From positions 48,222-112,221 of the forward strand of contig JAEUSF010000001.1 of NCBI GenBank assembly GCA_016788665.1: 64,000 bases of DNA, given 5' to 3'. The position numbers were made by a program, and so were the translations under genes. Position 1 is the stretch's first letter, and each line of letters starts with the position of its first letter. This document shows positions 15,023 to 59,336 of the stretch, piece after piece. Source of the DNA: Candidatus Doudnabacteria bacterium. Lineage in GTDB: Bacteria > Patescibacteriota > Doudnabacteria > UBA920. The notes under the pieces are model-generated. The model ran no database searches, was not told where the DNA came from, and saw nothing but the letters and a program-made list of their open reading frames with translations.

Positions 15023-16207
15023 ATGGAAGAAGTAATACAAACTCCGGTAGCATCCCCTATTCACCAGGCCACATACTCTGACGAGGCTAAGGTAGCCAGT
15101 ACCATGCAGGACTTAATTTCCTCTGGTGTGGAAATTAAAGTTTTAAAACCTGGTGACATGGTGGAAGGTGTTTTAATTTCCGCCGGTAAAAACGAAGTCT
15201 ATATAGATTTGGAAGGTTATGGTGTTGGAGTAGTTCGTGGTCGCGAATTGTACGACGACCAAGCTTCTATTGCCGCTTTAAACCCGGGTGATAAGCTTTT
15301 GGTTTCAGTGGTGGAATCGGAAAATAAGGAAGGCTTGGTAGAATTGTCCTTAAGGCAGGCTGGACAAAGTCGGGTTTGGCAGACATTGAAGGAAAAAGTT
15401 GAAAGTAAAGAAGTTGTGCGTACTAAAATTTTAGAAGCCAATAAAGGTGGTCTTATGGTAGAAATTAGCGGAGTAATTGGTTTTTTGCCGGTTTCCCAGC
15501 TTTCCATAGAGCATTACCCGCGCGTTGAAGATGGTGATAAAAGTAAAATTTTGGGCGCGCTTAAGTCCTACATTGGTCAGTTGTTCGATGTTCAAATAAT
15601 TACTGCAGAACCTGACGAAGAAAAGCTTATTGTGAGTGAAAAAGCTGTTATGGAAAAAGAAATGGAAGGCAAGCTTTCTAAACTCAAAATCGGCGATATC
15701 GTTGAAGGAGCTGTTACAGGGGTTGTTGATTTCGGTGCCTTTGTTAAATTCGGAGAACTAGAAGGGCTTGTGCATATTAGCGAGCTTGCTTGGCAGCGTA
15801 TAGACAATCCAAAGGATATTATAAAAGTTGGCGACAACGTTCGCTGTAAAGTTATTTCCATAGACAAGGGGCGTGTTTCTTTGTCTATAAAACAACTTTC
15901 TCAGGATCCTTGGTTGGAAGCGGTAAAAAAATACCAAATAGGCCAGGTAGTAAAAGGTAAGGTTAGCAAAATTATGCCATTTGGAGTCTTTGTTGAGTTG
16001 GACAAAGATATACAAGGATTAGCTCATATAATGGAGTTATCACACGACGCCGTTAAAAGTGCTGAAAATATTTTAAAAACGGGTGAAGAAAAAGAATTTA
16101 AAATTATTTCAATTGAACCAGGCGAGCATAGGTTAGGGCTTTCTTTAAAAGCTTTAACTGAGGCTCCTAAAACAGAAGAGGTTGTAGCAGAGGAAAAGGT
16201 GGAATAG
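15023..16207 (+). CDS. rpsA: 30S ribosomal protein S1 (short, 4 S1 domains)
   Basis: Repeated S1 OB-fold motifs (GDMVEGVL..., GDIVEGAVTGVVDFGAFVKF..., GQVVKGKVSKIMPFGVFVEL...). Confidence 0.9.
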   Translation: MEEVIQTPVASPIHQATYSDEAKVASTMQDLISSGVEIKVLKPGDMVEGVLISAGKNEVYIDLEGYGVGVVRGRELYDDQASIAALNPGDKLLVSVVESENKEGLVELSLRQAGQSRVWQTLKEKVESKEVVRTKILEANKGGLMVEISGVIGFLPVSQLSIEHYPRVEDGDKSKILGALKSYIGQLFDVQIITAEPDEEKLIVSEKAVMEKEMEGKLSKLKIGDIVEGAVTGVVDFGAFVKFGELEGLVHISELAWQRIDNPKDIIKVGDNVRCKVISIDKGRVSLSIKQLSQDPWLEAVKKYQIGQVVKGKVSKIMPFGVFVELDKDIQGLAHIMELSHDAVKSAENILKTGEEKEFKIISIEPGEHRLGLSLKALTEAPKTEEVVAEEKVE

Positions 16208-18552: not shown

Positions 18553-18627
18553 TGGAGGTGCAGATGGGAATCGAACCCATGCATTGCGGTTTTGCAGACC
18601 GCCGCGTTACCACTTCGCCACTGCACC
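18553..18627 (-). tRNA. tRNA-Cys, anticodon GCA, CCA encoded
   Basis: GGTGCAG...GCGGT-CTGCAAA-ACCGC...ATGGG-TTCGATT-CCCAT-CTGCACC-T-CCA. Confidence 0.85.
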
Positions 18628-18632
18628 GAAAT

Positions 18633-18878
18633 TTATGTATCTATATATTTTATTTTTAACAATTCTTTTTGCTGTCCGCTTTTATAAAACTTTTCCTTTT
18701 TCATGGCTTCGCTTCTGGTCAGACAAGTTTCATAACTCAATAGTTTCCATGGTCTGTAACCTTTGGTGGATTTAACTCTGCCTTTGTTATGCTGAGTATA
18801 CCTTAGTTGAACATTTTCGCATGATCCAATATAGACGTCGCCATTCTGAAGGCTTTTAAGAAAGTATACGTAATACAT
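18633..18878 (-). CDS. small GIY-YIG nuclease family protein (YhbQ/UPF0213-like)
   Basis: MYYVYFLKSLQNGDVYIGSCENVQLRYTQHNKGRVKSTKGYRPWKLLSYE...EAMKKEKFYKS carries the GIY...YIG...R...E...N motifs. The ORF-track version (to 18980) reads through a tRNA-Cys fragment; I prefer the internal ATG at 18876-18878, preceded by TATAAT. Confidence 0.7.
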   Translation of the reverse strand: MYYVYFLKSLQNGDVYIGSCENVQLRYTQHNKGRVKSTKGYRPWKLLSYETCLTRSEAMKKEKFYKSGQQKELLKIKYIDT

Positions 18879-18936
18879 AGAAACATTATACTTTTGTAGG
18901 TTTTGTCCCCCTACGGGGGATCTGCCGTAGGCATGA

Positions 18937-18974
18937 CAGACCGCCGCGTTACCACTTCGCCACTGCACCGAAAT
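18937..18974 (-). repeat. exact 38-bp duplicate of tRNA-Cys 5' end (5 nt upstream + nt 1-33), followed by a GC hairpin
   Basis: 18937-18974 is identical to 18595-18632. After the break in the anticodon loop comes TCATGCCTACGGCAGATCCCCCGTAGGGGGA, then 7 more tRNA-matching nt (CAAAACC). Confidence 0.8.
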
Positions 18975-19021
18975 GTACAATGAGGTAATTTTACTTCATT
19001 TGAATTTTTTTTTCAATACTA

Positions 19022-19746: not shown

Positions 19747-20118
19747 TCTTATATCAGACTCCTTTCTTCCCTCTTGCTTTGAGTAAACAAAACAAGGTTG
19801 ATTATTTAAGGAACATTAGGTCCAGTAATGGACCAACCCAAACCATTCGACACGATTATTTATATAAAAGCAATATGGTCTGGGTAAATAAAAAAGTGCA
19901 GGTAGCACTTTCTTAATGTAAGTATACGCTTTTTAGCGCTTTTTTTCAAGCCCTTTTTGTCTATTTTTAGCTTAAATAAGCGAAAATACATTTATTTAGT
20001 TTTAAAAACAGCCAAAATCAGCCCTCTTATATAAGCCAAAATCTGACTAAGTTTAGAAAGGGAGAATTGTGTTCAGATAGTGTTAAATACCTTTACTTAA
20101 GCCAAAAGGCAAGGCGGA

Positions 20119-21376: not shown

Positions 21377-21671
21377 GAGTATGTGGTTATATGACCTAAA
21401 CTTTACGACATTGAAAGTATAACAAAAAACTTTTGGTAGTAACAGGTGTTTTGAAAATAGCAAACTCCGCGTCCGGAAGGTTGTTGGCCGCACTAAATTT
21501 GTGGAAATAAATTACCAAGCAAGCTTGGGACCACTTTCGTTTGATTCCTCTTTCACGCCATAAACTAAAAGAAATCGCCCCACCCATAAAGGGTGAGGCG
21601 TTTTCTTTTGGAGCTGCCTAGTTAAGGATGTTAGAACTATGGTTATGGGAAACAGTAAGTCCTTAGAGGTG

Positions 21672-23948
21672 TTAAAATTTTTCTTTTAAAGAATAAAACA
21701 TGTCATCAATTTGTTTGTACTCGGAAGAATCAGTACTCGACGAAGTTCTATAGTCTTCTGGGTCTATATCCACATATTTTTCATTTTCTAGCTCATGTAC
21801 CTTATGCTCTAGCTGTTTTTCAATTTCTTTAATATCAACTTCTAACTCCTCGCTTATTTCTCTAAAATCAGTTTTTAAATCCTCGTAGGAGCCTTCAGAA
21901 ACGTAATCAATTTCGTTTTCTAGTATATCATTTATTGAACTTTTTATTTCATCAGACAATTTAATTTTTTTATATTCCTCGGGAAAAATTTCCGCAAATT
22001 TAATAAAATATTTTACATCCTCAATTGACTCCATCGTTTTAGAAAAGAAATCGACAATGCCAGTTTTATCAAATTTGGTGAAAGGAGCAATTATTTCTAG
22101 TATATCAATATAAAAATTTTTATCTTCCCCTTTAATTTTATTATATTCAATATGTCCAAATATTTTAAAAACAAAATTCTGCCATTCCAAATCTTCGTTT
22201 AAACTCAAATTATTGATTGCTAATTTGAGTTTATATAAAATACTCGTCGACCTCCTAGCCCAATAATAAATAGCGTCAGCGCTAAAAGAATGTACAGTTC
22301 TTATCAAATGAGAGATTTTAAAATCAGAAAGTCCATTTTTTATATTTTCTTTAATTGTTTTAACTTGTTTTTTGCTTAGGATTATTTTTTCATTGCTCTC
22401 TTCATTAACCGAAAAAACTGTAAAAAATTGATTCAAAAAAATAACGTTCGTGATTAGGTCGTCAACTAAATCGGAATCTCTTTTTAGGTAATTTAGCAAA
22501 AAATCTTTGATTGAAGGATTTTGGAAGTCAATATATATTTGACCTCTTCCATCTCTTTTTGAAGATATGAATGTATTTTCAAGCTCCTTAATAGAGTCTT
22601 TTAATGAAAAGGAGTTAAAAGTAAAATTGTATTTTTTTGAATATTTTTGGGCAAATTTTATAAATGCTTCCTTTAAATCTTCAAATAACGCTGGGCCTCC
22701 CATAGAAAGCAAAACCATTAGTAAGCATTTGGAAAAATTAGTAATTTGCTTTTCATAACTGTGTTTCCATATCAATTCAGGGTTGTCTAGGTAATTAATA
22801 AATTTGTCAAAAAATTTTAAAGGCTTTATATTTTCCCAAATGCTAGGATTTGTAATAGTTTCAATTATCCTAGGATTATAATTGGGATGGTTAATAATAC
22901 CCATATAGTTTTTGTCCTCAAGGATGTTTTCTATATAGGGCTTGCTTATGTTTGAAAAATATAGATGATTGTATAAAATTCTTGACTTAACAAGTTTATT
23001 ATATTTTGATAAATCCAAAATACATTTTGCCAATTGAAGATTTTTATTATCTAGGCGTTCATAATTTACCAGGGCTTGATTTAAAATATATTCTCTTGTA
23101 GTCAGAATTAAGATTTTATTTTTAGATTTATTAACCAAGTCAATAAATTTAATTATTCTTTCATCCTCGTTGTTAGATATTTTATTTTCTAAAAAATTAG
23201 TTCCCAAAAAATCATCAAAAAGAAAAATTTGTTTTCTTTCAGGATTTAGAGCCTTGTATCCCTCCCCAATGTTATCAGATAAGTACACAAAATCTTCAAA
23301 GTCATTAGCCAAAAAATGATATACCAGTATTCTAGCCAATGTCGTTTTGCCTATACCTGGTATTCCCGATATTATTACGTACTTTTTTTTACTTAAGATT
23401 TCGAGAGCTTCGTTATAACTATCGTTCTCAACATACACTTTAATATTCTCTTTAATTGATTCTTCCTCGAAACTCGATTGATTGTATACTTTACTTTGTA
23501 CCAACTTTTCAAGAATAGAAGTACTAGATAACCATAACTTGAAATGTCTTTTTTCTACATCGGGGAATTTTCCGAGTAAATTATTTAAATCGCTTCTGCT
23601 GAAGATGTCATTAGGAGAAATGATTATAGGCTTACATAAATCAAAAATAGTTTGTTTTTGTTTTCGTGATAAAGGTGAGGATGTTGTTAGTATATATCTT
23701 TTTGGTTTAAGTTTAATCGCTTTTCCGGCCTCTTTTTTTATATTTGAAATTAAGGAATTATAATTTTCGTATCTTTTACACTGCACAATAATTGTTTCCT
23801 CTTTGTCTTGATAGCAACGTAAATCAATTCCACCATCTCGACCAGCAATAAAACTTTCCAGACGAATATTAAGGAATTTTTGAAGCAAGTCCCTAGACAG
23901 AACCTCAAATTCAATCGACGATAAATTTAAAAAATTATAAATATCCAT
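21672..23948 (-). CDS. Avs-like antiviral STAND protein: N-terminal Mrr-like PD-(D/E)xK nuclease + STAND (NB-ARC-type) NTPase + helical C-terminal domain
   Basis: Residues about 10-70: FEVLSRDLL...GRDGGIDLR...IIVQCKRY (Mrr_cat-like, D...QxK). Walker A VIISGIPGIGKTTLARIL, Walker B KQIFLFDDFLG, then ILILTTREYIL (NB-ARC/STAND TTR motif). About 430 aa helical C-terminus. 3-nt gap to the upstream OLD gene. Confidence 0.8.
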   Translation of the reverse strand: MDIYNFLNLSSIEFEVLSRDLLQKFLNIRLESFIAGRDGGIDLRCYQDKEETIIVQCKRYENYNSLISNIKKEAGKAIKLKPKRYILTTSSPLSRKQKQTIFDLCKPIIISPNDIFSRSDLNNLLGKFPDVEKRHFKLWLSSTSILEKLVQSKVYNQSSFEEESIKENIKVYVENDSYNEALEILSKKKYVIISGIPGIGKTTLARILVYHFLANDFEDFVYLSDNIGEGYKALNPERKQIFLFDDFLGTNFLENKISNNEDERIIKFIDLVNKSKNKILILTTREYILNQALVNYERLDNKNLQLAKCILDLSKYNKLVKSRILYNHLYFSNISKPYIENILEDKNYMGIINHPNYNPRIIETITNPSIWENIKPLKFFDKFINYLDNPELIWKHSYEKQITNFSKCLLMVLLSMGGPALFEDLKEAFIKFAQKYSKKYNFTFNSFSLKDSIKELENTFISSKRDGRGQIYIDFQNPSIKDFLLNYLKRDSDLVDDLITNVIFLNQFFTVFSVNEESNEKIILSKKQVKTIKENIKNGLSDFKISHLIRTVHSFSADAIYYWARRSTSILYKLKLAINNLSLNEDLEWQNFVFKIFGHIEYNKIKGEDKNFYIDILEIIAPFTKFDKTGIVDFFSKTMESIEDVKYFIKFAEIFPEEYKKIKLSDEIKSSINDILENEIDYVSEGSYEDLKTDFREISEELEVDIKEIEKQLEHKVHELENEKYVDIDPEDYRTSSSTDSSEYKQIDDMFYSLKEKF

Positions 23949-23951
23949 AAA

Positions 23952-25913
23952 TTAAAGAGACTGGAATAAAGTAGTTATAACGCTAGGTATGTTTTGTTTG
24001 TCTTTAATTACAGATTTTATTAATTTGCCACTTTTTTCTCCCTTACTTGGCAGGCAGGCTTTTTTCTCTTTATTACTATCAAGATAAACTTTGTCACTTA
24101 GTAGCTTGTAAAACTTATGTTCTCTATCATTCTTTAAATCTTTTCTAATTTCTCTAAAAACACTCTCGTCATAATTAAGACCGCAACACTCTTTTAAAAC
24201 TTCAATCCAAACGCTGTCGTCTATGGAATCTTCTAAGTCATAAGTCCCAATCAAAGTAATATTTTTAGCGGATAAAGCTGAATCAGAGTCAAGCAGGTAA
24301 TAAACATGTTCTTCGCTTTTTTGAAAGTTTTTTAAAAGCTCTTCAAACATAGTTTTATTTTTTTTACATTCATCTTTCCCCCCTAGATTAATAAGTTGAA
24401 TTGAATCCTGCATTAGTGTTCTTCCAAAATACAACTCATAAAAATAAGGTATTAAAATTTCTTCGGTGGGTCCTTCTACACACAAAAATTTATCGTAAAA
24501 TAAGAAGTCGCTACTTTTAACTTTTAATGAGTTTAGGACATCTTCAACATTAGAGCATTCTAAAATTTCAGAATAACCATCTTTCAAAGTAAAACGTTTT
24601 ATATTTTTAATGTTCAGTCTGTCAACAAAAATTGTCGAATGAGTGCTAACAAAAACTTGATAATAACTTTGAGATAATTTTTTTAAAATATTATATAAAT
24701 CTCTTTGAGCAGCAGGGTATAGATGAATTTCTGGTTCATCAAAACACCATAGAAATTTTTTTCTAATATCTTCAGTCGTTATTTTTTGTAAACTTGCCCA
24801 TTTAATAAATGCAAACCAAATCTGTTTTTTTACTCCCTCTCCTTGTGACTCCAGTCTTATATCACCATCACTACTAGTTTTATTTATCATAATATCTGAA
24901 ACATTTTCCTCAATATTAAAACTAACTGCTGCTTTTATGGCAGTAATATTTGGGAGTTCTTCAAAAAGATTGCCGGCTTTCCCTGCAAGTTCTTGATTTA
25001 CTTCTTGTGTAACGGTTTCACTGAGTTCCTTTGCACTTGTTTGCAGCGTATTTTTATATCCTTCTATTTTTGAAGCCATTGAATCAGCCGCAAGTTTTTC
25101 GACATCTTTTAGAGTTACGTTCCAGTCAATATAACGACAAACTGGGAAAAACCCCTTATCTTTTTTTACAAAATCTTTGTGCTCAGCCCAGCTTAGCTCC
25201 ACATCACTTTTACTATAAATTGCCCTAATCAATTCAATGTTTTTAAATCTCCCTTTTTTATTTTCGTTTACAACTTCATCATTTGAAATATCCAATTCAC
25301 CCTTTTTATCTTTTAAAAAAGTTTGATTTTGACTCCAAAGCTGTAATGGATTCGATTTTGTTTCTTTAAGGCAAACAAAATATTTACCCGAGGAATTTTC
25401 CTTTGTAAATTGCTTGAGTATATATAGTTTATTTTCGGTTAAACTTTCTATGCTCCACTTAAGTATGTTAGTCGAGCTTTCGACAAAATCTTCACTAATA
25501 TCTTTTTCTTCAATTTTAAACTCCCCGATTATTGTCGTTGTGTTTTCAGTAAAATTAAAGATGGGTAAATTTAACTTTTCAAAGATTGAGTTATAATCTA
25601 ACTCGCTTATGCCCGTGTTTGAAATATCTGAAGTTAATTGGCCTTCTTTCGCAATATGAAAAGTACTATCCGTTTCTAATAGTAAACAAATGGCTTTTAA
25701 AAAAACAGATTTTCCAGCATCATTTATGCCAATGAAAACATTTGGAATATCCGGCTGTAAATCGACTATGACGTTTTTACAACTTTTGTAATTTATAATA
25801 GCCAAACGTTCTAAAATCATATTGATATTTTTTATTAAAGGCACCGCTGAATCAATTATAGGCTTAATTTTGCGAACAAACAAGTATAAATTTGTACAAT
25901 TTTTTAAGAACAT
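23952..25913 (-). CDS. OLD-family (overcoming lysogenization defect) nuclease: ABC/AAA_15-type ATPase + Toprim
   Basis: Walker A FIGINDAGKSVFLKAI; long coiled insertion; Walker B/D-loop LWCFDEPEIHLYPAAQ; Toprim glutamate FLCVEGPTEEILIP and DxD YLLDSDS. A probable true start is the internal ATG at 25818-25820 (MILERLAIINYK...). Confidence 0.85.
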   Translation of the reverse strand: MFLKNCTNLYLFVRKIKPIIDSAVPLIKNINMILERLAIINYKSCKNVIVDLQPDIPNVFIGINDAGKSVFLKAICLLLETDSTFHIAKEGQLTSDISNTGISELDYNSIFEKLNLPIFNFTENTTTIIGEFKIEEKDISEDFVESSTNILKWSIESLTENKLYILKQFTKENSSGKYFVCLKETKSNPLQLWSQNQTFLKDKKGELDISNDEVVNENKKGRFKNIELIRAIYSKSDVELSWAEHKDFVKKDKGFFPVCRYIDWNVTLKDVEKLAADSMASKIEGYKNTLQTSAKELSETVTQEVNQELAGKAGNLFEELPNITAIKAAVSFNIEENVSDIMINKTSSDGDIRLESQGEGVKKQIWFAFIKWASLQKITTEDIRKKFLWCFDEPEIHLYPAAQRDLYNILKKLSQSYYQVFVSTHSTIFVDRLNIKNIKRFTLKDGYSEILECSNVEDVLNSLKVKSSDFLFYDKFLCVEGPTEEILIPYFYELYFGRTLMQDSIQLINLGGKDECKKNKTMFEELLKNFQKSEEHVYYLLDSDSALSAKNITLIGTYDLEDSIDDSVWIEVLKECCGLNYDESVFREIRKDLKNDREHKFYKLLSDKVYLDSNKEKKACLPSKGEKSGKLIKSVIKDKQNIPSVITTLFQSL

Positions 25914-25953
25914 CGTAGTATAAATTTGATTATTTGATTAACTAATCAAGCTA

Positions 25954-26148
25954 ATGCAACACGGCGGACAAAGACCAAATTCGGGTCGTCCCAAAGGTAG
26001 TAAATCGAAAAATACCCTAGAGCGTGAAGCCCTAAGGCAATTTATATTTGACGAGGTTAAACGGAACCAAAAGAAAATTGTCGCTGCGTTAATCCGCCAA
26101 GCCACAAAAGGGCAAAGAAAAGGTGTCAGGTACAATTTTAGCAAATGA
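25954..26148 (+). CDS. small basic DNA-binding-like protein with phage terminase-small-subunit-type N-terminal motif
   Basis: MQHGGQRPNSGRPKGSKSKNT... (GRPKGS motif common in phage TerS/HTH proteins). Divergent from the OLD-STAND operon across an inverted-repeat operator. Confidence 0.4.
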   Translation: MQHGGQRPNSGRPKGSKSKNTLEREALRQFIFDEVKRNQKKIVAALIRQATKGQRKGVRYNFSK

Positions 26149-26209
26149 CCTTTCGGCTTCGCTCAGGCTCCAAAGAAAAAATTTCCAAAAAATGTGGAAG
26201 TTTTTTCTT

Positions 26210-26231
26210 TGGAGCGGCTAAGGGGAATCGA
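26210..26231 (-). repeat. 22-bp direct repeat of the tRNA-Gly 3' end (pseudo-tRNA fragment / att-like)
   Basis: tggagcggctaaggggaatcga is identical to 26418-26439. Confidence 0.8.
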
Positions 26232-26417
26232 CCCGCCCACGGTGGATTTTCAACTCCCTTTGGTTGTTTCAAATCTCACCTAACGCGGGCCCGTCACTAC
26301 CAAAAACTGCGCTCGCTCGCTTTTGGTTTCCGCCTTTGGCGGAACCGTTCCCGTTCGATTCCTCCAAGCCATTACAAACAAAAAATCCGATTACCGTAAA
26401 GGCAATCAGATTTTTTG

Positions 26418-26491
26418 TGGAGCGGCTAAGGGGAATCGAACCCCTATCCTCTCCATGGCAAGGAGAAGTTCTACCATTGAACCATAGCCGC
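26418..26491 (-). tRNA. tRNA-Gly, anticodon GCC
   Basis: GCGGCTA...TCTCC-TTGCCAT-GGAGA...GGGGG-TTCGATT-CCCCT-TAGCCGC-T-CCA. Confidence 0.85.
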
Positions 26492-26536
26492 AAGTAATAA
26501 CTATTTTATCAATTCTATTTAATTTGGCAAATTTTT

Positions 26537-26611
26537 TGGTGCCGCGGGTCAGGATCGAACTGACGACACGACGCTCTTCAGGCGTCTGCTCTACCACTGA
26601 GCTACCGCGGC
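26537..26611 (-). tRNA. tRNA-Phe, anticodon GAA
   Basis: GCCGCGG-TA-GCTC-AGTGGTA-GAGC...GACGC-CTGAAGA-GCGTC...GTCAG-TTCGATC-CTGAC-CCGCGGC-A-CCA. Confidence 0.85.
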
Positions 26612-26614
26612 TTG

Positions 26615-26847
26615 TTTAACTTGTTTTTTAAAAGCCTTCTTCCAGCTGCTGTTTTTAAATACAATTCTCTTTTTCTAGCTTCGTCGAATGTATTAAGTTC
26701 TTCAGTATAAACTATTTTAATATTTTCCATTCTTGAAGTGGTTTAAGTATGTCCGTATTTGTGTTCTTTAAGACGTCTTTCCAGATCCTTAGTCATTCCT
26801 TTGTATAGCTTACCATCTTTATCTCTCAATACATATACAGTATACAT
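26615..26847 (-). pseudogene. frameshifted GIY-YIG nuclease gene (second copy of the tRNA-associated cassette)
   Basis: Minus strand from ATG 26845-26847: MYTVYVLRDKDGKLYKGMTKDLERRLKEHKYGHT then stop. Shifted frames continue ..KPLQEWKILK.. and ..VYTEELNTFDEARKRELYLKTAAGRRLLKNKLNK, the same family as 18633-18878. Confidence 0.65.
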
Positions 26848-26862
26848 AGTTATATAGGTATT

Positions 26863-26929
26863 GGCGTCTGCTCCCCGCCCGACTGAACGGCTTCAGTCGT
26901 TCGGGCGGGTACCACTGAGCTACCGCGGC
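26863..26929 (-). repeat. truncated tRNA-Phe 5' duplicate (nt 1-20 + 37-bp GC hairpin + nt 21-31)
   Basis: 26910-26929 equals tRNA-Phe 5' end (taccactgagctaccgcggc). Hairpin cccgcccgactgaacggcttcagtcgttcgggcggg; then ggcgtctgctc matches the next 11 tRNA nt. Confidence 0.75.
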
Positions 26930-27072
26930 TCGTTTGGATTACTATGAGCCCGCACTACGCCTTGATTACATCTAGGCTTCGGCGCGCAGCCTTCGCAATA
27001 ATACAACTTTCGATAAATCTTCAAACTTGGTTTACGCTTTTTGGCGTAAGCCAGCCGAAGCTTTAGCGAAGG

Positions 27073-27149
27073 CTGGTGGGCAATAAAGGATTCGAACCTT
27101 TGGCCTTCTCGGTGTAAACGAGACGCTCTAACCAACTGAGCTAATTGCC
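27073..27149 (-). tRNA. tRNA-Val, anticodon UAC
   Basis: GGGCAAT...TCTCG-TTTACAC-CGAGA...AAAGG-TTCGAAT-CCTTT-ATTGCCC-A-CCA. Confidence 0.85.
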
Positions 27150-58262: not shown

Positions 58263-59336
58263 ATGCCAAAAAATAATTCAAAAGCAAATTCTGTTGATAC
58301 TGGTAAGTGGAAGGCGGTTACTTCCGCACTGGACCAAATTAAGGAAAAATTTGGCGATGGAAGCATAATGAAGCTTTCCGATACAAAATCTTTAAACATA
58401 GAGACAACTCCGACCGGGTCAATATCTTTAGATTTAGCGTTGGGGGCTGGCGGGGTACCTAAGGGAAGGGTTATAGAAGTCTACGGTCCTGAGAGCAGTG
58501 GTAAAACCACGCTAACTCTTCATATGATTGCCGAGGTTCAGAAAAAGGGCGGGTTGGCAGCCTTTATTGATGCAGAGCATGCTCTGGACCCTGAGTATGC
58601 TAAACGTATAGGTGTTAAATTGGAGGATCTGCTTATTTCCCAGCCTGATAATGGCGAACAGGCTTTGGATATTTGTGAGACCTTGGTTCGTTCTAACGGC
58701 CTTGACCTAGTAGTTATTGATTCGGTAGCCGCCTTAACCCCAAGGAATGAAATAGAGGGAGAGATGGGAGACAGTCATATGGGCCTTCAGGCCAGACTTA
58801 TGAGCCAGGCCTTAAGGAAGCTAACGGCTATAATTTCTAAAACTAGTACCACAGTTATTTTTATAAACCAGATTCGCATGAAAATTGGTGTTATGTTTGG
58901 TAACCCGGAAACAACTACTGGTGGTAACGCGCTAAAGTTTTATGCAAGCGTGAGGCTGGAGGTTAGGCGAACTGCGCAAATAAAAAATGGTGACAAGATA
59001 GTGGGTAACAGAGTTAAAGTTAAGGTAGTAAAAAATAAAATTGCTCCACCGTTTAAAGTTGCAGAGTTTGATATTATGTATAACGAGGGGATTAGTGCCT
59101 CTGGTGACTTGTTAGATACTGGGGTATTGATTGGGGTTATAGAAAAGTCTGGTAATACTTATATGTTCGGGAGCGTGAAGCTTGGGGTAGGTAGGGAAAA
59201 TTCAAAAACCTTCATAAAAGAAAATCCGGTAGTAATGAAAGATATAGACGTAGCGGTTAGAGAGAAAGTTAAAAGCGGAGAAGCCGTGGTGCCAAATAAA
59301 GCTCCAGAAGAAGTTTCTGAAGAGGAGAAAGAATAA
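58263..59336 (+). CDS. recA: recombinase RecA
   Basis: [18 protein letters not shown] Walker A, L1/L2 loops, 357 aa. Confidence 0.95.

Follow-up and report, generated by a model that had tools for sequence, protein, structure and literature searches.

Known systems and the locus under study

The 3′ ends of tRNA genes are classic landing sites of mobile DNA, and short repeats that are found there are routinely taken as scars of integration. In 2002, Williams reportedly distinguished integration sublocations in tRNA genes, and a 2003 article with the title "Traffic at the tmRNA gene" is said to have treated islands and prophages at the 3′ ends of tRNA or transfer-messenger RNA (tmRNA) genes, including tandem arrays at one site. 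Here we describe such a repeat in a stretch of 64,000 nucleotides from Candidatus Doudnabacteria bacterium (GenBank assembly GCA_016788665.1, contig JAEUSF010000001.1, positions 48,222 to 112,221 of the forward strand), which is called the window in the following. Two copies of the 3′ end of a tRNA-Gly(GCC) gene enclose 186 bp, and a defence island with OLD and STAND genes lies nearby. The apparent scar belongs to a conserved folded element, E (the copy in the window is E′), which is personalized to the neighboring tRNA (Gly, Asp) or tmRNA. The explanation that we favor overall, with moderate confidence, is that E′ belongs to a small cassette at the 3′ end of tRNA-Gly, and that this site is shared with large serine recombinase (LSR) elements, one of which brought in the island.

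The locus has several features in common with islands at the ends of tRNA or tmRNA genes, namely, direct repeats of the tRNA 3′ end, a tRNA regenerated by element DNA, older decayed copies further out, and defence cargo with a foreign GC content. In contrast to such islands, the unit between the exact repeats of the window is gene-less and is a conserved folded element, the closing stem of which uses the repeat itself, and the recombinases at this site in relatives are LSRs, not tyrosine integrases. LSR integration of the phiC31/Bxb1/A118 type is similar in the domain architecture, the recombinase gene beside one junction, the HTH_17 accessory genes, and the fact that only a short CCGCTCCA segment is common to both junctions. 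It differs in that the target is here a tRNA 3′ end (Gly or Asp), that the recombinase open reading frame (ORF) ends in the antisense strand of the tRNA, and that the window has kept the distal junction only, with no recombinase.

The repeat and its tRNA gene

The repeat is formed by the following gene and a second copy of its 3′ end:

26418-26491, minus strand: tRNA-Gly(GCC) with encoded CCA (ARAGORN; Rfam tRNA, 68.9 bits)
26530-26503, minus strand: promoter-like site of tRNA-Gly (promoter scan)

A search of the window revealed exactly two copies of the 22-mer TGGAGCGGCTAAGGGGAATCGA on the plus strand, at 26210-26231 and 26418-26439, which are identical at 22/22 positions, as an earlier note on this sequence had reported. 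Further matches with up to three mismatches were found neither in the window nor in 100 shuffled sequences, and the chance expectation is 0. The copy at 26418-26439 is the true 3′ end of tRNA-Gly, from the T-loop via the acceptor strand to the CCA. The repeat is thus the 3′ part of a tRNA, with one copy within the functional gene, and in itself it is a member of the well-known class of tRNA-end attachment-site duplications.

The GC content is 0.46-0.51 over 26100-26500 (about 0.50 at 26200-26400), 0.25-0.32 over 21800-25900, and about 0.37-0.42 in the flanks, which bears out the contrast between the enclosed segment and the island that had been noticed before. No ORF is enclosed by the exact repeats, and a recombinase gene was not found between them. 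The claim that the window lacks an integrase holds for the 29 ORFs that were scanned with Pfam (the island ORFs and 26 others, a non-exhaustive set), none of which has an integrase or transposase domain.

A conserved folded element behind tRNA-Gly

The enclosed 186 bp consist of a terminator hairpin and most of E′, which reaches into the distal repeat:

26379-26417, minus strand: A-run, 16-18-bp hairpin, and T-run directly after the CCA (sequence and fold)
26210-26370, minus strand: element E′ (type A), a closed multi-helix fold (fold, covariance model, homologs, covariation)

The hairpin looks like a bidirectional intrinsic terminator, a putative assignment. It differs from the ancestral terminator of tRNA-Gly, an equivalent layout is found in all relatives, and the inserted cassette begins with it. 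The minus strand of E′ folds with -96 kcal/mol (z = -7.5). The 5′ strand of the closing stem, GGCUUGGAGGAAUCGA (26370-26355), pairs with UCGAUUCCCCUUAGCC of the tail, and the stem encloses several hairpins. The last 22 nt of E′ (26231-26210) are the second copy of the repeat and are equal to the 3′ end of tRNA-Gly including the CCA. The score with the covariance model R1 is 34.9 bits (E = 6e-6). A tRNA or tmRNA gene is ruled out, because neither ARAGORN nor the Rfam tRNA and tmRNA models detected one at 26210-26417.

A scan of 185,579 species-representative genomes with the 22-mer yielded 38 loci, nearly all of them in Patescibacteria assemblies. Many of these loci share the gene order tRNA-Val/Phe/Gly. 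Inspection and the model R1 identified E homologs behind tRNA-Gly at the loci L005, L007, L014, L018 (two copies), L019, L021, L027 (two copies), L029, L105/L107, and L113, and a further homolog is present in L108. Homologs behind tRNA-Gly, singly or in tandem, thus occur in at least 10 other Patescibacteria assemblies. The layout is fixed: the tRNA is followed by a hairpin with A- and T-runs, E ending in ...AUUCCCCUUAGCCGCUCCA, and another such hairpin. The syntenic locus L007, which has about 74% nucleotide identity to the window in a flanking gene, contains the same duplication, with copies 214 bp apart. Its E and that of the window have an invariant core and hairpins that differ by compensatory changes, and compensatory hairpin changes also characterize the homolog in L113. 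RNAalifold predicted 36 pairs for six E sequences, 16 of which have double changes. For 13 E sequences, 96.8% of the cells are paired and 22/35 pairs have changed on both sides, compared to at most nine such pairs and about 45% pairing in slid controls and 0/500 shuffles that reached the observed score, while it has to be kept in mind that the alignment was fitted to the model and that the pair counts lean towards that structure.

The Rfam 15 models gave no match at E ≤ 1 for the elements in the window, L005, L029, L108, L110, and L042, and at the gathering score they recovered tRNAs alone in the window. Literature searches retrieved no description of E-like elements, and they are not mentioned in a paper about tRNA group I introns in Patescibacteria (PMC13011429). 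Therefore, E appears to be a new, conserved family, which has no Rfam match and for which no description was found in the literature. A metagenome scan with the type-B tail resulted in only nine loci, several of which are tRNA-Gly variants, and this tail had no viral match. The 5′ motif had 61 matches in a viral scan, of which L042 alone is real according to the covariance model, and exact copies of the 22-mer in viral contigs are confined to a phage tRNA. Guide RNAs of the TnpB/IS200 type, IS110 bridge RNAs, retrons, and T-boxes were considered and rejected, as no such protein is encoded by the 29 scanned ORFs (a subset of the window ORFs) and no Rfam match was obtained.

The earlier note had taken the 186 bp as the decaying, foreign remnant of an integrated element, with the repeats as its attL and attR. 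The identity of the direct repeat with the tRNA 3′ end, the use of this tRNA as integration site in relatives, and the lack of an integrase among the scanned window ORFs are in agreement with that proposal. However, the segment is conserved in many genomes and carries compensatory changes, and in L007 and L113 the duplication surrounds a homologous segment with no island inside; the earlier note had itself listed findings of both kinds as counter-evidence. In addition, a truly decayed older E in the same window has lost its structure and its tail, and no similarity to the phage and plasmid collections was found with the 186 bp in distant-mode blastn. A decaying remnant is therefore very improbable, and the segment is better described as a structured element with strong covariation.

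Gain and loss of units at the tRNA end

Apart from an exact block of 214 bp, the loci L018 and L005 are collinear; the block is present in L018 only and consists of ATTCCCCTTAGCCGCTCCA, a hairpin, and the body of E1. Its insertion point is within the 3′ end of the tRNA, the terminator that comes next is identical at 41/42 positions, and the E that follows is orthologous. The tandem copies of L018 belong to different subtypes, and the newer one is placed next to the tRNA, ahead of the ancestral terminator. At L027, two near-identical E units are found in tandem. Unoccupied sites are exemplified by L005, which is devoid of the 214-bp unit of L018, and by L026, in which about 175 bp separate a conserved anchor block from tRNA-Gly. 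The distance from this anchor (about 19882-20040 in the window) to tRNA-Gly is 6.4 kb in the window, 0.18 kb in L026, about 1 kb in L034, 1.35 kb in L007, and 2.1 kb in L025; L026 and L034 do not contain E, and L025 carries a different unit. On the evidence of these alignments, cassette units are gained and lost precisely at the tRNA end. The comparison also agrees with the earlier suggestion that the segment of 21.6-26.4 kb was inserted relative to the ancestral layout, and the interval is hypervariable.

The anchor block looks non-coding and is located between a gene for a 230-aa secreted protein and the variable region. Its nucleotide identity is 69-80% in L007, L025, L026, and L034, and it matches no Rfam family at the gathering score.

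Small units of 50-100 nt, types C and D, are also found behind tRNA-Gly (L007, about 300-390; L014, 3230-3300; L012, L025, L038, and L009). GAGCGA motifs abound in these units, which terminate in UUAGCC(G)CUCCA (UUAGCCGCUCCA) or decayed versions thereof and may be reduced relatives of E.

The tail follows the neighboring gene

The body motif UCGAACGGG is intrinsic to E, and specificity for the adjacent tRNA or tmRNA resides in the tail and the outer closing helix. At L118, an E (51.5 bits) is located behind tRNA-Asp, and its tail AGUCCCGUCCGGUCC is equal to the 3′ end of tRNA-Asp up to the discriminator. The 5′ strand is GGAGGACU in place of GGGGAAU, so that the closing helix is kept. Two consecutive shorter E-like units of about 105 nt each are present at 11830-12160 of L042 (viral contig IMGVR_UViG_3300032167_000473), just past phage lysis genes, at the end of the phage region. 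Each of them has the tail GACUCCCCUCAUCUCCACUCA and the matched 5′ strand GAUGAGAGGAAUCG, and the 21-mer of the tail is the 3′ end of a tmRNA gene in L116. The tmRNA-tailed units in this phage-flanking contig reveal that the E family extends beyond Patescibacteria and beyond tRNAs. The personalization of tail and closing helix to tRNA-Gly, tRNA-Asp, or tmRNA appears to be new.

These results bear on the question of whether E might be a resident, non-mobile gene for a non-coding RNA, which is inherited vertically and keeps its tail for a tRNA-like 3′ end (e.g., for processing by RNase P or the CCA enzyme, or for stability). Additional copies would then stem from tandem duplication, and the identity of 22 bp would be unrelated to recombination. 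The conserved position behind the tRNA's own terminator in many genomes, the match of the 5′ strand to the tail for three different RNAs, the retention of one intact E in the window next to a decayed one, and the identical tandem duplicate of L027 would all fit. However, the distribution is patchy even among the closest relatives (none in L026 and L034, a different unit in L025), and the two copies of L018, with their different subtypes and the new one between tRNA and ancestral terminator, are not the result of a simple duplication. Furthermore, the same body is combined with tails of tRNA-Gly, tRNA-Asp, and tmRNA and is also found in a phage-flanking contig whose base composition differs, which requires transfer and retargeting. 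A resident gene is thus an unlikely explanation.

A helix that ends in acceptor-strand sequence and NCCA is also typical for the tRNA-like domain of tmRNA, the Y RNA YrlA, viral tRNA-like structures, and mascRNA. The 5′ motif GGAAUCGAACGGG and the 3′ motif GGACG...CCCC of E are reminiscent of tmRNA termini, a resemblance only. E differs from these modules in that it has no Rfam or ARAGORN tmRNA match, type B has no local T-arm hairpin, the first acceptor pairs are usually missing, and the tail is copied from the adjacent tRNA.

Folding at the level of RNA or DNA

Alternatively, E might be a site that is folded at the DNA level, single-stranded or as a cruciform, like the attC of integrons, the folded attP of CTX phage, or a rolling-circle single-strand origin, and the closing stem would rebuild the double-stranded attachment region of the tRNA gene for a recombinase. 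The composition of the pairs, i.e., 382 Watson-Crick (95%), seven G·U, and five A·C pairs, is strand-symmetric, which is uncommon in RNAs and just as compatible with selection on DNA hairpins. Moreover, both strands of E fold far better than shuffled sequences. The array of cassettes at one fixed site is integron-like: serial insertion, structured imperfect-palindrome unit ends with variable sequence and conserved fold, the position of the newest unit nearest to the site, and the presence of some genes in between are shared with integron arrays. In addition, the LSR element of L111 contains a gene for a rolling-circle Rep (weak Phage_CRI match), and E-like copies lie within a mobile defence island, L110. 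However, tandem G·A motifs (GC-GA-GNN...NNC-GA-GC) are conserved on the tRNA-sense strand only; they are a typical RNA motif and favor RNA. E was not found inside LSR elements, and its closing stem leaves out the CCGCTCCA segment that is common to the LSR attachment sites. The fold of E is a branched multi-helix structure and not a bulged hairpin, most units contain no ORF, and the repeat is a tRNA 3′ end, all of which is unlike integrons. No integrase of the IntI type was detected in the 29 ORFs scanned, and inspection of the ends of E revealed no GTTRRRY/RYYYAAC cores. Taken together, a site that acts as folded DNA seems quite unlikely. An integron attC site in particular was rejected, based on the absence of a tyrosine recombinase from the 29 ORFs, the ends GGC..GGGGAAUCG and ..UUAGCCGCUCCA (inspection only), and the branched fold.

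LSR elements use the same site in relatives

Genes for LSRs of 500-540 aa (Resolvase + Recombinase + Zn_ribbon_recom) are found immediately behind tRNA-Gly and in opposite orientation at L020/L111, L002/L113, and L024. Their last codons, W-S-G-stop (TGG AGC GGC TAA), are read from the antisense strand of the tRNA, and the TAA corresponds to tRNA-Gly positions 63-65. Paralogs with about 59% identity are placed alike at tRNA-Asp (L118, L119):

L111, 10001-11510, opposite to the tRNA: LSR gene overlapping the 3′ end of tRNA-Gly
L113, 8124-9636, opposite to the tRNA: LSR gene overlapping the 3′ end of tRNA-Gly
L024, opposite to the tRNA: LSR gene overlapping the 3′ end of tRNA-Gly
L118, 7164-8731, opposite to the tRNA: LSR gene overlapping the 3′ end of tRNA-Asp
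L119, 8001-9566, opposite to the tRNA: LSR gene overlapping the 3′ end of tRNA-Asp

The elements have sizes of 7.6 kb (L111) and 4.1 kb (L113), and their cargo includes a type IIG restriction-modification enzyme, the rolling-circle Rep (which is part of the L111 element), Bro-N, and HTH_17 genes. The distal ends read ...CCATA(A/G)TTCTATAATCGTCCCTTA(A/G)ACCGCTCCA and are followed by the terminator, which is succeeded in L113 by a type-A E with tail. The 3′ end of tRNA-Gly is thus the attB of LSR elements in this clade. LSRs with reading frames that terminate inside tRNA genes appear to be new, and with their stop codon in the tRNA those of this group are a potentially useful source of naturally defined attB/attP pairs.

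The possibility that E is the element-side arm of the LSR elements was rejected, because the LSR element and E are set apart by a displaced tRNA end plus the native terminator in L113 and L118, and the arms are unlike E. In the case of a further LSR paralog, in L120, the gene that is overlapped at its 3′ end encodes a protein and not a tRNA.

The OLD/STAND island and its history

The island and its borders comprise the following features, given from the tRNA-proximal side outwards:

26170-26209, minus strand: second A-run, hairpin, and T-run after E′, AAGAAAAAA..TTTTTTCTTTGG, equal in form to the hairpins behind E in L007 and L014
26147-26171, minus strand: remnant of a small tailed unit of type D, GGAGCCUGAGCGAAGCCGAAAGGUC, related to the unit after tRNA-Gly in L009; the tail is decayed
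25954-26148, plus strand: 64-aa ORF, weak DUF5681 match (Pfam, E = 0.0022, below the cut-off)
23952-25913, minus strand: OLD-family ATPase-TOPRIM nuclease (Pfam AAA_15, OLD-like_TOPRIM; PADLOC Old, 3.3e-38; GC about 29%)
21672-23948, minus strand: Mrr_cat-nSTAND3 NTPase (Pfam; PADLOC PDC-S73, 1.5e-161)
21628-21642, minus strand: distal end of the island, CCATAGTTCTAACAT, matching the element-side attR arm CCATAGTTCTATAATCGT of the LSR elements L111 and L113
21609-21627, minus strand: decayed displaced copy of the tRNA-Gly 3′ end, CCTTA[ACTAG]GCaGCTCCA in tRNA sense (sequence comparison)
21567-21608, minus strand: ancestral tRNA-Gly terminator, gcctcaccc..gggtggggc, TTTCTTTT (terminator scan, comparison)
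21454-21559, minus strand: E_old, a decayed, truncated older E (blast and alignment), collinear with the E of L007; the 5′ motif GGCGUGAAAGAGGAAUCAAACG is kept, the tail is lost
21423-21453, minus strand: hairpin and T-run after E_old

The terminator at 21567-21608 matches the one directly behind tRNA-Gly in L007 at 38 of about 42 positions, and terminators of this ancestral type directly follow tRNA-Gly in L005, L007, and L014 and, more diverged, in L021 and L038. The window is collinear with the tRNA-end/terminator/E region of L007 over 21650-21400, with the match of E_old comprising the first ~30 nt; the covariance model gave no significant score for E_old. As reconstructed from this collinearity, the ancestral locus is composed of tRNA-Gly, terminator, and E. 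About 4.8 kb (21609-26417), including the OLD and Mrr-nSTAND3 genes, is inserted DNA that separates the tRNA from its terminator and whose recombinase has been lost, since a decayed copy of the tRNA 3′ end and an LSR-type end are followed by the ancestral terminator and E_old. The window sequence at 21628-21642 (CCATAGTTCTA...) aligns with the attR of L111 and L113, and the junction is decayed by an insertion of 5 nt in the core. An LSR gene (Resolvase + Recombinase + Zn_ribbon_recom) beside this junction was not found in the window, while it is present at the same tRNA in L111, L113, and L024. The island is an ordinary degraded integrative element.

The weak third repeat copy that the earlier note had hesitated to assert is real: it is the decayed tRNA 3′-end copy at 21609-21627, at the far end of the island. 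Integration at the tRNA 3′ end likewise stands, as the site is used by LSR elements in relatives, but the exact repeats do not delimit the OLD/STAND island, which lies outside of them. The OLD gene does not begin directly beyond the distal repeat either, because a hairpin, a small decayed unit, and the 64-aa ORF (25954-26148, about 40% GC) intervene. A relative of this ORF is a small ORF that adjoins the tRNA-Gly array in L021 (tblastn, blastn), and the window ORF is probably a truncated neighbor gene and not part of E.

The nSTAND3 protein has a match with 100% identity in a record of Candidatus Doudnabacteria, and the next relatives have only 47% identity and stem, where named, from Bacteroidota. 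Together with the GC content of 28%, this indicates that the island was acquired horizontally. Exact-protein look-ups of the flank genes of the window and of P0001 gave no record. The genes for OLD and Mrr_cat-nSTAND3 are 3 bp apart and may form a two-gene defence unit. The true start of OLD is probably an internal Met at about 25820 (MILERLAI...).

In tRNA sense, the order is thus tRNA-Gly, new terminator, E′ with exact tail, hairpin, decayed small unit, 64-aa ORF, OLD, STAND, LSR-type attR with decayed tail, ancestral terminator, and E_old. On the tRNA-proximal side, where the recombinase would be expected, the new terminator, E′, the hairpin, the decayed type-D unit, and the 64-aa ORF are found instead. 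Either small units were inserted later and a deletion followed, or the tRNA-proximal part was replaced by recombination with DNA of a relative; we infer one of these two courses. The locus provides a concrete history for the fixation of an OLD and STAND defence pair after loss of the recombinase.

A proposed cassette at a shared site

According to the favored explanation, the repeat would be the junction signature of a cassette comprised of terminator hairpin, E, and a copy of the tRNA 3′ end, which was presumably inserted exactly at the 3′ end of tRNA-Gly(GCC). The body of E would be closed by a stem with a 3′ strand that copies the T-stem and acceptor 3′ strand of the neighboring tRNA and a 5′ strand that is matched to the tail. 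Recombination via the shared sequence of the tRNA 3′ end would add and remove cassettes as whole units, and newer units would displace older ones away from the tRNA. The simplest route would be of the RecA type, with the conserved tRNA gene as one arm and the tail of 19-22 nt as the other arm; a recA gene is present in the window at 58263-59336. As another route, a dedicated recombinase might act in trans. An LSR element would have delivered OLD and Mrr-nSTAND3 and would later have lost its recombinase end. E may be read through from the tRNA-Gly promoter (26530-26503), and the closing helix with the NCCA tail could mimic the acceptor/T-arm of the neighboring tRNA and serve as substrate or decoy for proteins that recognize that end. 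Within the favored explanation, this putative transcription by read-through and action as acceptor/T-arm mimic is a tentative part, to which we give somewhat less than an even chance.

A broader proposal is that E is a retargetable RNA cassette that mimics tRNA ends. Its body would travel among genomes and targets; at each stop, the 3′ end of the local tRNA or tmRNA would be copied as the tail, to which the 5′ strand would adapt. The tail would combine two roles, insertion homology for an element that has no recombinase of its own and acceptor/T-arm mimicry, e.g., as a decoy for nucleases, integrases, or processing enzymes. We regard this proposal as possible, albeit on the unlikely side.

Several observations weigh against the cassette explanation, in addition to the strand-symmetric pairing and the model-fitted alignment mentioned above. 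No recombinase was identified for the small cassettes, and upon inspection their junction is attB-like and not LSR attP-like, so that mobilization of the cassettes by LSRs is unlikely and the mechanism of insertion is one that we infer. The homology arm of 19-22 nt is at the lower limit for RecA-type recombination. The tail of the tRNA-Asp-associated E in L118 does not include the discriminator and CCA. In L110, the island of the L018 genome, two tandem E-like domains (15631-15860, 58.6 bits) have no tRNA tail and are far from tRNA-Gly. They are flanked by a 93-aa gene and a HEPN_AbiU2 gene, come after a "tRNA-Gly native"-type terminator, and share the defence island with genes for an LSR, a Toprim primase-like protein, and an nSTAND3 homolog. 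E is located only 8-20 nt behind a hairpin and is wedged between two terminator-like hairpins, with no room for a promoter of its own. Lastly, more than one order of events could have placed E′ between the tRNA and the island.

If E is indeed an expressed mimic of tRNA ends or a recombination module, it would be a new player in the traffic at tRNA genes. This would matter most in the genome-reduced Patescibacteria, in which each tRNA is assumed to be encoded by a single copy.

Other elements at tRNA ends

A leader with the sequence G(C/A)CTTCGCTAAAGCTTCG(G/T)CTGGCTTACGCC directly follows the CCA of tRNA-Val (window 27043-27073) and the CCA of an E tail (L021, 5660-5690), and it precedes a GIY-YIG gene in both cases. 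A third kind of element thus also inserts at CCA ends. GIY-YIG genes are also present 5′ of two tRNA genes of the window. The one at tRNA-Cys (ORF 18633-18980, region 18593-18980) is accompanied by a duplication of 33 nt, 18937-18969 being equal to 18595-18627. The one at tRNA-Phe (26602-26860, region 26581-26930) is fragmented and has an internal stop; nucleotides 1-20 of the tRNA are found at 26910-26929 and nucleotides 21-31 at 26863-26873, split by a hairpin of 36 nt. With the duplicated 5′ part of the tRNA, these GIY-YIG genes at tRNA-Cys and tRNA-Phe look like homing-type insertions with target duplication.

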